NCBI GenBank assembly: GCA_964420165.1
Contig: CAYQSL010000001.1
Span: forward strand, 1-42,656
DNA: 42,656 nucleotides
Source: an uncultured Gammaproteobacteria bacterium
Lineage (GTDB): Bacteria > Cyanobacteriota > Vampirovibrionia > LMEP-6097
Reading direction: 5' to 3'
Part shown: one piece after another, positions 18,684 through 22,412 of the stretch
Numbering within the stretch: position 1 is the stretch's first letter
How the letters are laid out: every line of letters begins with the position of its first letter
Notes under the pieces: generated by a model
Told to the model about the DNA's origin: nothing
What the model saw: only the letters and a program-made list of their open reading frames with translations
The model's database searches: none
Translations under genes and position numbers: made by a program

Positions 18684-21600
18684 GTGAAAAATAAAATTGG
18701 AAGAAATTCTCTTTGTCCGTGTGGCTCAGGTAAAAAATATAAGAAATGCTGTATAAGCATTCATTCAGGCAATTTTAAAGACTGGATAAAAACATTTAAC
18801 TCTTGGTCAATGATTGGAAGTTTAGGAAGATTACAAATTGAGCCTTGTAATTTTTCTTATATATCAAAATATCAAGAAGCCATTAGTTTATGTTTTGCGA
18901 ATGAAAAAAATAACTCTAAGCAAAAAATTAATTTTACTGATGTTGATACTTTTATTAAAAAGACAGATAACTTTTCATCTGAGAGAATTTTAGAATCTAC
19001 ATCTCTTTTTACTCAGAACATGCCTTTTATGGGTTCTAACTATATTGTGTATCCAGATCCAGAGCTAAATGAAAATAGATCATTATTTCGGATATTTTTA
19101 TCTACATTAGAGATATATAAGAATAAAATACCCGATGAGATACTCATGCCTATTACAGGCTTATTAATTCTTTCAAATACTTTAGCTAGAGCAAAACTTA
19201 ACCATTCTAAAAACATGAAGCATACTTGCTCGGAGTTAACCGACCTTGATCCCCAAACATATGGGGCTACTATTTTCTCAGAAGAAAAAATAAATGATAT
19301 GTTGGAATTTTTCAATTTAGAAGAAAGCTCACTCAAACACTTTGTCATCGATTATACAGATTATCGTTTAAGAAAGAGCTGGAGCCCCAATTACATACTA
19401 TATTTTAAGCCAATTGTTAAATATAATGACTTATATATTATTGCTTACCCAACTGCCTTTCTATCAGCGATAAGGCACTTTTTATTTTTGAAATTCAAAG
19501 AATTAGGTCTCTTAAAAGATTTAATTTCAAAATTTAGAACCTTATCAATTCAGAGGATAGATAATTTATTACGACAAATCGACTTTGAGAAAGTAGAGCT
19601 TGGAGGAGCTTTAGACTTTGGTAAAGATCCTGCTTTTGAGGAAAAAATTTATAAGTTTGATACTGATAAAATTTGTATATTACAAGTGTATGTTGATGAA
19701 TGCTCTGATTATGATGAGAATTCAGTTTATAAAACCTTGCAAGGAAGTCACTGGCTATCAATAATGAAAGAGAGAAGAGATAAGCTAAGTGAGGGGCTTT
19801 CAACTTTTTTCCCACGACACAAAGTAATGTCCTTAAAAGTTTTTACCGGGGTTGGCCGTGGCAATCCAAATTTCTCTTTTGATAATGAAGCGAACGAGCA
19901 TTTAAGAAATCTTGTTACTCGATATGAAGATTTAGATTTTTATTTAATGAGAGATAGCTTGGATAACTTAGATCTATGGAACTTATTAGAATGTAGAGAT
20001 ATTTTTGAGCAAGAAAATATTCTGTATTGCGAATCTTTTCTTGACCTTTCAATAGTTTTCGAATCACATAACGAATCTTTATACATGAGTGATGATTCAC
20101 CTAAAGTAATTCTCCCAGTTAAACCAAATCTTTGCAAAGCGTATATAGAGGAAATAATTACAAGTAAAGACTTTCAGTATGCTCCTTACACAAGAAATCA
20201 ATTTGCTTTAATAGAGAAACTATCAAAAAACGTTGATGGTTTATATGTAATGTCTGATAATGTTGGTCACTACGATTATTCTAAGTTATGCTTGAAAAAT
20301 TTTTCTACTCCCATTTGGCTCAATATCAATTCCAAATTTGATTTTGAAATTGATGCAATCATACGCTGCATAAGATTTTGGTTTAATGAAATGCATTCAA
20401 AGATCAATGAAGCTTTAGAAAAGTCTAAATATAAATCAACTATTCAAATTGAGATATATAGCCCCCCAGAGACTAATGGCGAATCTAGCTATATTAGAAT
20501 CGAGAATGAAAAGGTAATTATTGAGAATACTGAAAGAATCTTTTTAGATGGCGATAAGATTTTTATATTTAATTTAATTAATTGTATAAAAAGTTTATTT
20601 AGTAATCTTTCACTGGAGCTTGATATTTCAGATTCTGACTTAGAAAAACATTTTCTAAATCCAAATAAAAAAATTTTCCAGTCATTTACTTGCATCTTAG
20701 ATGCAGATTTATCACACTTAAAACCTTTTAAAAAAGCTCTATTGAAACAATATAATTATGAAAAATCGGTTGGAGATCTTGTACCACGTATAAAAAAATT
20801 TACAAATGAACTAAACTATGATTCTAAAATACCATCAGAGAAAAACCATATTGTCGTACAAACTGCTCAAAGCCTTTTTCTTGAAAGGATTGACAGTATT
20901 ATTGCAAATATCAATAAAGAAATTTTATTATGCAAGTTAATCGAGAATAATGAGTATATTGTAGGTGATAGGAATTTAGAAAATAGAACTTCTTTATCAT
21001 CAGCATTAATTTCAAACGGCATCAATGAAAGAGCTATAGAATTAAATAGAAAAGAAAAATCTTTATGGTCCGAGAATGGTCTAACAATACGATTCTTAAT
21101 TGAATACATTATGGGAAGCAAGTTGAAGGGTACTGCTCCTGAAATATCTGATTATGACTATAACGAACTACAGGGAAATGCCCTCAGCTATATAAACTAT
21201 GGATTTATAGGTGATTATATTAGAAATAAAAATATTTTTGAAAATGAGTTTGAATTTCTTCCATCTGGAAGATTAGAAATAAAAAATTGGGAAAGATTAA
21301 GACTTACACAATTAGGTGAAATGAAGGCACTAGAAAGAATAGAGGGATATATTGATACTACTTCCACTGCAAACGAAAACCTATCTATTGAAGATATACT
21401 CGAAAAAGAAGAAGTTAGTCTCTTCTTAAGTGGATTTAAATTAGAGTTCGGGATTGATTTTGAAATATACACAAGGATATCTGCCGAAATTATTATGCAG
21501 GGTATTGATGAAATCAAAAATTACATAAAAATTCCTAGAACCATAGCTTTAAAAAGTATAAGTACCAAATTGCAAATTGCCGAAGAGGAAGTGAACACCT

Positions 21601-22412
21601 TTTTTGAGAACTTTTCATTAATAGAAAGAAACAATTGGTCTGGTGATCTTCCAATTGATTGTGATCAGAATGATATATTGCCTTGGATATTTAAAAGAAG
21701 ACTGTCTTTTAATAAAAAGCCATTCCTACTCTTTGAAAATCAAAATGAAACATTTATTTTATATGGCTTCAGGCAAGTATTAACATCATTAAAAAGATTT
21801 TCGAATGATTTAATTCAAGCTAATTTAAATGATGAGCATTACCCTAATTTAAAGGAATTTTTTGGTAAAGTGAAAAACAAGAGAGGGCGAAAGTTTGAAG
21901 ATGAAGTTGTAACTCATTTAAAGAACCATTCATCAGAAGAATGGTTGATTCACGGACCACGAGAAGATATAGCTCCTGATAAAAAATTAAATGCAGAGAA
22001 AAACTATGGAGATGTAGATATCTTTATTTTCAATCGGGAAAGAAAGTATGCTTATATTATAGATTGTAAGAATCTTTTAGATGCCCGCACTCCAAGAGAG
22101 ATTGACCAAGAATTAAAAAGATTGGTGTATTCTCCTAGGTCTGATATTTTTAAACATCTTGAACGGTTTAAATGGCTTTCTGAAAACTGGGAACAAGTGA
22201 TTAGTTTGTACGGCTTGGTGGATGGGGAGTGGAAATTGGTCCCTTATATGATGTTTAGGAGTCCAATCCCTACAACTATTATTAAAAAGTCAAATGATCT
22301 AAAGTTAGAAACAGTCTCATTTTCTGAAATAAAAAGGTATGGGATTGATGTTATTAATAAAAAAAATTCACCATTTGAGAGGACCATTATTACGCATAGA
22401 AAAAATGCTTAA
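18684..22412 (+). CDS. 1,242-aa protein with N-terminal SEC-C zinc motif and C-terminal PD-(D/E)xK nuclease-like domain
   Basis: GTG start. The SEC-C motif is CPCGSGKKYKKCC (18714-18752). The C-terminus reads FEDEV...YGDVDIFIF...YIIDCKNL (GDVD at 22008-22019, D-C-K at 22062-22070), which matches the E...D...(D/E)xK pattern. I saw no Walker A motif. Confidence 0.6.
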   Translation: MKNKIGRNSLCPCGSGKKYKKCCISIHSGNFKDWIKTFNSWSMIGSLGRLQIEPCNFSYISKYQEAISLCFANEKNNSKQKINFTDVDTFIKKTDNFSSERILESTSLFTQNMPFMGSNYIVYPDPELNENRSLFRIFLSTLEIYKNKIPDEILMPITGLLILSNTLARAKLNHSKNMKHTCSELTDLDPQTYGATIFSEEKINDMLEFFNLEESSLKHFVIDYTDYRLRKSWSPNYILYFKPIVKYNDLYIIAYPTAFLSAIRHFLFLKFKELGLLKDLISKFRTLSIQRIDNLLRQIDFEKVELGGALDFGKDPAFEEKIYKFDTDKICILQVYVDECSDYDENSVYKTLQGSHWLSIMKERRDKLSEGLSTFFPRHKVMSLKVFTGVGRGNPNFSFDNEANEHLRNLVTRYEDLDFYLMRDSLDNLDLWNLLECRDIFEQENILYCESFLDLSIVFESHNESLYMSDDSPKVILPVKPNLCKAYIEEIITSKDFQYAPYTRNQFALIEKLSKNVDGLYVMSDNVGHYDYSKLCLKNFSTPIWLNINSKFDFEIDAIIRCIRFWFNEMHSKINEALEKSKYKSTIQIEIYSPPETNGESSYIRIENEKVIIENTERIFLDGDKIFIFNLINCIKSLFSNLSLELDISDSDLEKHFLNPNKKIFQSFTCILDADLSHLKPFKKALLKQYNYEKSVGDLVPRIKKFTNELNYDSKIPSEKNHIVVQTAQSLFLERIDSIIANINKEILLCKLIENNEYIVGDRNLENRTSLSSALISNGINERAIELNRKEKSLWSENGLTIRFLIEYIMGSKLKGTAPEISDYDYNELQGNALSYINYGFIGDYIRNKNIFENEFEFLPSGRLEIKNWERLRLTQLGEMKALERIEGYIDTTSTANENLSIEDILEKEEVSLFLSGFKLEFGIDFEIYTRISAEIIMQGIDEIKNYIKIPRTIALKSISTKLQIAEEEVNTFFENFSLIERNNWSGDLPIDCDQNDILPWIFKRRLSFNKKPFLLFENQNETFILYGFRQVLTSLKRFSNDLIQANLNDEHYPNLKEFFGKVKNKRGRKFEDEVVTHLKNHSSEEWLIHGPREDIAPDKKLNAEKNYGDVDIFIFNRERKYAYIIDCKNLLDARTPREIDQELKRLVYSPRSDIFKHLERFKWLSENWEQVISLYGLVDGEWKLVPYMMFRSPIPTTIIKKSNDLKLETVSFSEIKRYGIDVINKKNSPFERTIITHRKNA

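Follow-up and report, generated by a model that had tools for sequence, protein, structure and literature searches.

A deep-branching member of the Upx anti-phage family with an N-terminal SEC-C motif

Gene, domains and family assignment

We identified a very divergent, deep-branching member of the described Upx family of anti-phage proteins in contig CAYQSL010000001.1, analyzed here as a single stretch of 42,656 nt (the window). The gene lies at 18684-22412 on the forward strand, beside an integrase gene and within a segment of defence-type genes that is described further below. It is a complete open reading frame (ORF) with a GTG start and a TAA stop, and its product is 1,242 amino acids (aa) long, compared with approximately 1,200-1,305 aa for full-length relatives. 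The start call is considered sound because homologues share the start position together with the N-terminal consensus xxxKIGRNDPCPCGSGKKYKxCC. An earlier reading of this DNA made from the letters alone (the sequence-only reading) had described a single-gene product with a SEC-C motif at its N-terminus and a PD-(D/E)xK nuclease at its C-terminus. This architecture is real, as judged from the ORF, from Pfam and from alignment with the Upx protein of Salmonella enterica NCTC6026 (SeUpx, PDB 9WUF). The features of the gene are the following, with the corresponding parts of SeUpx.

18684-22412 (+): Upx gene (ORF and translation)
18702-18752 (+): SEC-C zinc-knuckle motif, residues 7-23; Pfam PF02810, E=1.3e-8, score 35 bits (cut-off 20.4)
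18771-20174 (+): N-terminal domain (NTD), the putative sensor, residues ~30-497; corresponds to the SeUpx NTD, 39-515; mixed alpha/beta in the model
20175-20687 (+): middle domain, residues ~498-668; corresponds to the SeUpx middle domain, 516-714; 10% identity
20688-21884 (+): helical part of the C-terminal domain, residues ~669-1067; corresponds to SeUpx 715-1120; long helices in the model
21885-22271 (+): predicted PD-(D/E)xK nuclease core, residues ~1068-1196; corresponds to 9wuf_A 1121-1247 (phmmer); alpha/beta core in the model
22011-22070 (+): predicted catalytic motif G-D1110-V-D1112 ... D1127-C-K1129; corresponds to SeUpx D1159/D1161/E1176/K1178

SEC-C is the sole significant domain in a Pfam scan of the protein. 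No P-loop, Walker A, helicase or methyltransferase domain was found by Pfam anywhere in the 1,242 aa, including the large middle region where the last three had already been reported missing by eye. A weak match to HSDR_N_2 (E=0.024, residues 1092-1134) coincides with the PD-(D/E)xK core, and we regard the faint matches to CRT-like, Vel1p and DUF3201 as noise (E about 0.09).

The upx gene is said to have been described as an anti-phage system by Gao et al. 2020. Assignment of the protein to this family is based on several resources. The PADLOC Upx model PDLC02221 matches the C-terminal 450 residues (E=5.5e-26). The NCBIfam model NF042954, Upx_antiphage ('anti-phage protein Upx'), matches residues 731-1178 (E=4e-28, 97 bits). 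Both matches begin in the helical part of the C-terminal domain. The NCBIfam score is far below the curated equivalog cut-off of 1,900 bits; the protein thus belongs to the Upx family without being an equivalog of the enterobacterial protein. The Pfam family PF28173 ('Upx-like') is annotated in precomputed data on the exact 1,242-aa protein, alongside PF02810 (SEC-C). Among 5.8 billion proteins searched, we found the exact protein and 40 relatives, nearly all of which carry the same precomputed PF02810 and PF28173 architecture; most of them are 1,230-1,315 aa long and 20-25% identical to the protein, with near full-length coverage.

A single-sequence phmmer comparison with the SeUpx cryo-EM chain 9wuf_A (1,272 aa) covers the C-terminal 410 aa only (E=1.9e-12). 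A profile built from 38 homologues, in contrast, aligns to this chain with E=9e-106, its positions 43-1241 matching 9wuf_A residues 39-1253, and the homology thus spans the whole body of the protein and not just the nuclease. AlphaFold2 models were made of residues 43-1242 and, separately, of residues 1-1200. The first has a predicted local distance difference test score (pLDDT) of 82 and a predicted template modelling score of 0.84. In a Foldseek search of the PDB with this model, 9wuf was the sole match at E<=0.001 (E=1.6e-38, template modelling score (TM) 0.68/0.68, ~1,200 residues, 15% identity), and the next match had E=0.3. The approximately 1,000 aa for which no function could be named by eye correspond to the sensor and middle domains of Upx.

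For the mapping of residues and domains, SeUpx 39-1247 was rebuilt from the HMMER alignments, with a numbering that reproduces every residue named in the SeUpx paper, and was added to the family alignment with MAFFT. Overall identity to SeUpx in this alignment is 16%. The middle domain is the least conserved part, and the nuclease core is 24% identical to SeUpx 1121-1247.

The SeUpx catalytic residues D1161, E1176 and K1178 align to D1112, D1127 and K1129. D1112 is aspartate and K1129 lysine in all 38 homologues; D1110, which aligns to SeUpx D1159, is also invariant (38/38). Together with the fold match to 9wuf, the alignment bears out the C-terminal nuclease and indicates that the D...DxK motif is a true PD-(D/E)xK site. 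The catalytic residues first proposed were D1110, D1127 and K1129. The last two stand, and D1110 is to be replaced by D1112, the aspartate homologous to SeUpx D1161.

The stand-alone defence nuclease in a defence island that had been suspected from the letters is thus supported, and its family is Upx by PADLOC, NCBIfam, Pfam, profile alignment and Foldseek. This is a known defence family and not a housekeeping or mobile-element family. The gene, which defied assignment by eye, belongs to a defence family with a structure and a trigger that were both published in 2026.

The extent of the divergence was examined by an exhaustive phmmer search with the body of the protein, excluding the SEC-C part, against 1.84 billion representatives. 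It yielded 1,481 representatives of the family at E<=0.001, of which 1,002 reach E<=1e-10. Apart from the protein itself, the best match is 28% identical, the highest identity to any representative in the trimmed family alignment is 26%, and the 90%-identity cluster of the protein has one member. Judged from these comparisons, the protein is a deep singleton branch of a large and known family, for which Evans et al. (2026) report 2,093 homologues in phyla of both bacteria and archaea (PMC13601566). This isolation (28% identity or less to any representative) makes the protein a useful test of which Upx features are truly conserved. Divergent relatives are publicly labelled by NCBI only as 'YecA family' or 'SEC-C metal-binding domain-containing protein', and such relatives are therefore probably under-counted among defence genes.

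Mechanism and alternative readings

The protein shares with SeUpx a single stand-alone polypeptide of ~1,250 aa, homology over the whole body, the three-domain fold (TM 0.68) and the C-terminal D...(D/E)xK residues. However, the two are only 16% identical; SeUpx lacks the SEC-C motif, possesses the proposed DxR exonuclease residues in its NTD, and has a glutamate in its ExK motif where the protein described here has an aspartate. The host of SeUpx is an enterobacterium, whereas the host here is a Melainabacteria-like organism; from the relatives of the RecJ encoded in the window, it is probably an uncultured cyanobacterial relative without photosynthesis, with a genome of the Vampirovibrionia/Melainabacteria kind.

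SeUpx is a monomer and a Mg-dependent nuclease, and its defence against phage PhiV-1 requires E1176 and K1178 (PMC13099982). The E1176A substitution abolishes both defence and toxicity (PMC13601566). SeUpx, HpUpx from Hydrobacter penzbergensis and PbUpx from Pyrinomonadaceae are each activated by diverse large terminases, for which the ATPase domain alone suffices, even though SeUpx and HpUpx are only 16% identical (PMC13601566). HpUpx and PbUpx thus sense terminase ATPase domains at ~16% identity to SeUpx, and the 1,242-aa protein is equally far from SeUpx.

Because the protein is as distant from SeUpx as HpUpx is and keeps the whole Upx body, we favour, by analogy, terminase-triggered release of the nuclease as the likeliest mechanism. 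Sensing would fall to the large region formed by the N-terminal and middle domains, which would bind a large terminase of a phage at its ATPase domain. The contact would be made with terminase in a locally unfolded form by beta-augmentation, as in the AlphaFold 3 models of Evans et al., in which the N-terminal sensor binds the locally unfolded ATPase core in this manner (PMC13601566). Binding would then release the C-terminal PD-(D/E)xK nuclease (D1112, D1127, K1129), and the freed nuclease would degrade nucleic acid and stop the infection, probably at a cost to the cell (abortive infection). We place the probability of this reading as a whole, a deep-branching Upx protein that senses terminase, releases its nuclease and stops infection, at roughly 0.7.

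Several observations weigh against it. Binding of the terminase by unfolding comes from AlphaFold 3 models, with no solved complex, and gp16 has been proposed as a different trigger of SeUpx, along with an additional nuclease site, in a second paper (PMC13099982). With a score so far below the NCBIfam cut-off, a trigger and substrate shared with SeUpx are an extrapolation, and none of the experimentally studied relatives is closer than about 28% identity. Position 1127 is glutamate in 37 of the 38 homologues and aspartate here, the sole such case among them. Finally, two of the seven homologue loci that we examined for neighbours adjoin sugar-biosynthesis clusters and not defence genes.

It is unlikely that the Upx fold serves some other role at this locus, such as island maintenance or the exclusion of competing mobile elements, or that it is triggered by an ATPase other than terminase or by another phage protein. 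An integrase is directly adjacent to the gene both here and in Fibrella, and several homologues lie within conjugative or integrative elements with ArdC, TraG, TrwC or Rep3 genes. In addition, the identity to SeUpx is merely 16%, and Evans et al. leave room for activators other than terminases (PMC13601566). However, each of three Upx proteins that are about 16% identical to one another reacts to terminases. Defence cargo in general is typically carried on mobile elements, and this location is for that reason no argument for a different role.

A more specific challenge to terminase sensing comes from the dual-nuclease model (Zhou et al. 2026), in which the NTD is a minimal PD-(D/E)xK-like 3'-5' single-stranded DNA exonuclease held off by the middle domain; a gp16-type phage ejection protein frees the NTD, which then acts with the C-terminal nuclease. 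The model is based on biochemistry of SeUpx and on mutagenesis of D122, D127, R129, E147 and D173 (PMC13099982), and the three-domain body is the same in the protein described here. However, these five residues align to P114, N119, I121, S140 and N165, so that none of the five is kept, and the commonest residues at these positions in the 38 relatives are V, N, V, E and N, with no DxR motif. By this alignment the proposed second nuclease site of SeUpx is unconserved in the 1,242-aa protein. Given that five residues essential in SeUpx are unconserved, we regard the dual-nuclease model as highly doubtful for this protein. Furthermore, Evans et al. found that PhiV-1 activates SeUpx and HpUpx solely through the terminase gp19, and not through gp16, and that HpUpx partly defends against T4, a phage without gp16 (PMC13601566). 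The conservation of the C-terminal nuclease triad and the lack of conservation of the proposed second site in the NTD favour the sensor view over the dual-nuclease view for this lineage.

That the gene is a decaying or inactive relic is very improbable: the lineage is a singleton, with nothing above about 28% identity in the 1.84 billion representatives and a 90% cluster of one, but the frame is full length at 1,242 aa, all invariant family residues are kept, including the catalytic residues and the four SEC-C cysteines, and the fold is predicted with confidence.

The protein resembles Avs1-3 in its presumed trigger (phage large terminase) and in its general design, in which a large sensor is joined to a nuclease effector. 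However, Avs1-3 contain a STAND NTPase with a P-loop, which neither Pfam nor PADLOC detects in the 1,242-aa protein, and Avs is a tetramer whereas SeUpx is a monomer. Comparison of Avs3 with the AlphaFold2 model (E=1.6, TM 0.08) revealed no similarity in sequence or fold.

The SEC-C extension

The SEC-C motif noted at residues 11-23 from the letters was confirmed by the Pfam match to PF02810, which exceeds the gathering cut-off. Its cysteines C11, C13, C22 and C23 show the canonical CxCx8CC spacing (C11-P-C13-x8-C22-C23), and a zinc motif is predicted. This part of the protein also matches SecA and YchJ SEC-C peptides in the PDB. The CxCx8C(C/H) motif is identical to that of the SecA C-terminal metal-binding domain and of YchJ and YecA, but the rest of the 1,242-aa protein is unrelated to them. 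The motif is N-terminal on a defence nuclease here, whereas in SecA it is C-terminal. We rejected the possibility that the protein is a relative of SecA, YchJ or YecA, as the match is limited to the 20-residue motif. Similarly, 80 contig loci picked with the peptide CGSG[KE]KYK share the SEC-C part alone (residues 1-75 at most); they are not Upx and were not used.

SeUpx has no counterpart of the motif, and the profile alignment to 9wuf_A begins at chain residue 39. We surveyed the 140 nearest full-length family representatives, picked with a query that excluded SEC-C. The CxCx8C(C/H) motif occurs within the first 80 residues in 50 of them (44 with CC and 6 with CH endings), always with the 8-residue spacer (50/50), and nowhere in the protein in the other 90. 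The N-terminus is approximately 32 residues longer in the carriers than in the non-carriers. On a rough neighbour-joining tree the trait requires 21 changes, compared with 41 for shuffled labels; the apparent losses may be inflated by wrongly called starts of metagenomic genes. The distribution is clustered yet patchy, as expected of a modular add-on. The extension of approximately 30 residues is thus an optional addition, carried by roughly one in three of the nearest family members.

In the AlphaFold2 model of residues 1-1200, residues 1-30 have a pLDDT of ~50 and are unpacked against the body. The SEC-C region is therefore predicted to be a flexible tail; the AlphaFold2 models contain no zinc.

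We found no mention of Upx and SEC-C together in the literature searched, and the motif is absent from the text of PMC13601566 and PMC13099982. The SEC-C-type motif of SecA binds zinc (or iron), SecB and ribosomes (PMC6620043; bioRxiv 10.1101/613315). Evans et al. leave undecided whether Upx unfolds the native terminase or captures it co-translationally (PMC13601566). On these two grounds we consider, as an attractive but improbable speculation, that the extension could tether the protein at the ribosome, at a chaperone or at the membrane, where the sensor would meet nascent terminase that has yet to fold. The canonical spacing in all 50 carriers, the flexible extension of approximately 30 residues and its patchy spread are circumstantial grounds for this suggestion. 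If it were true, it would answer the question of Evans et al. as to unfolding of native terminase or co-translational capture.

Two further observations concern the N-terminal appendages. The SEC-C-less representatives P0059, P0061, P0099 and P0124 have N-terminal tails rich in lysine and arginine, for example MSKKTRKQKKREKLRKQGMKRRRR, and these may be alternative basic appendages. The SEC-C motif also matches the C-terminal ends of the small PADLOC models E1-E2, E2 and PDC-S12 (E about 4e-5), which indicates that it recurs in other defence proteins.

The defence segment and neighbouring genes

The features that surround the Upx gene are listed in order of position.

9817-14076 (+): Avs2-like STAND gene, 1,419 aa; PADLOC Avs2, E=2.9e-154
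14012-15271 (+): weak SIR2-like ORF, 419 aa; PADLOC E=8.8e-7, no stretch significant alone, no Pfam match
15256-16212: gene without a family label, left of the segment
16323-17174 (+): TIR-domain protein, adjoining the integrase; Pfam CAP12-PCTIR_TIR, E=1.4e-34; PADLOC PDC-S35, E=2.9e-60
17181-18308 (-): tyrosine integrase, divergent from the Upx gene and just outside the left repeat; Pfam Phage_integrase, E=1e-31
18417-18466 (+): direct repeat, left copy, 50 nt, resembling a tRNA 3'-end att remnant; located 218 nt before the Upx gene
22666-23982 (-): MauJ-domain gene, 438 aa; Pfam PF17419, E=2.5e-29
23979-24668 (-): YgjP-like metallopeptidase
24670-27693 (-): HsdR
27690-28874 (-): HsdS
28874-29746 (-): KilA-N gene, between hsdM and hsdS; PADLOC candidate PDC-S22, E=1.5e-132
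29753-32215 (-): HsdM
32265-33704 (+): Mrr_cat (Mrr-like) gene, at the far end of the segment
33988-34037 (+): direct repeat, right copy; 48/50 identical to the left copy
35527-36738 (+): Fic/DOC family protein, just outside the right repeat; Pfam E=1.3e-13

The att-like repeat that had been seen before the gene is a 50-nt direct repeat with 48 of 50 positions identical, which is beyond chance: zero copies of its 22-nt core are expected. Both copies resemble a tRNA 3' end, with a T-arm (GCGTG/TTCAAGT/CACGC), an acceptor strand and ACCA, and they bound a 15.6-kb segment (18417-34037) of solely defence-type cargo. No intact tRNA or tmRNA is present in the window, and the integrase lies outside the segment bounded by the repeats. 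The arrangement points to islands, tandem or decayed, at a tRNA site, with the intact tRNA gene either outside the window or lost.

The genes that flank the Upx gene run divergent or convergent to it. The type I restriction-modification (R-M) operon has the order hsdM, KilA-N gene, hsdS, hsdR, ygjP and mauJ-like, the last two being the YgjP and MauJ genes. Both the R-M operon and the Mrr-like gene reported beside the Upx gene are present; however, the Mrr-like gene lies at the far end of the segment and does not adjoin it. With the R-M operon, Mrr-like, integrase, TIR and Avs2-like genes nearby and homologues that often stand beside defence genes, the defence-island setting is upheld.

Downstream of the Upx gene, a candidate terminator-like hairpin at 22487-22502 (+), 75 nt past the stop, consists of a 5-bp stem with ATTTTGTGTC after it. 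Such sites are as numerous as expected from shuffles, no inverted repeat of greater length is present, and the structure of the downstream RNA is not above that of shuffles (z=+0.6). The terminator ascribed to the gene in the sequence-only reading thus exists as one short stem that is not above chance, a weak candidate.

The Upx homologue stands alone in all seven of the homologue loci, with no conserved partner and with neighbours that all differ. The integrase(-)/Upx(+) arrangement found here recurs at the Fibrella arboris homologue. Neighbours of the homologues include AbiE, AbiEii, Wadjet, Lamassu (LmuB), TIR, type IIG R-M and HicA, as well as DarT with a Macro-domain gene (DarTG), integrases, ArdC and conjugation genes.

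The Upx gene is preceded, at a distance of 4.6 kb, by the Avs2-like gene. As the Avs2 and Upx families are both reported to be terminase sensors (PMC13601566), this 13-kb stretch may carry two independent ones. The Avs2-like match begins at position 169 of the PADLOC profile, and the usual N-terminal effector therefore seems short or missing. The SIR2-like ORF and the end of the Avs2-like gene share 65 nt, and the ORF could encode an effector in trans for the Avs2-like protein. What remains of interest at this locus is the SEC-C tail, widespread in Upx but undescribed, the lack of conservation at the proposed second nuclease site, and the pair of presumed terminase sensors. Inexpensive leads for experiment are the SEC-C tail and the Avs2-like gene nearby.

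The G+C content falls to 0.25-0.29 at window positions 10001-17000, compared with 0.31-0.40 elsewhere in the window. This drop suggests separate acquisition of the Avs2/SIR2/TIR block and the Upx/R-M block. Farther to the right, a RecJ gene is found at 38355-40154 (+), the nearest named relatives of which belong to Caenarcaniphilales, Vampirovibrionales, Obscuribacterales and Melainabacteria (41-51% identity); another protein is 89% identical.

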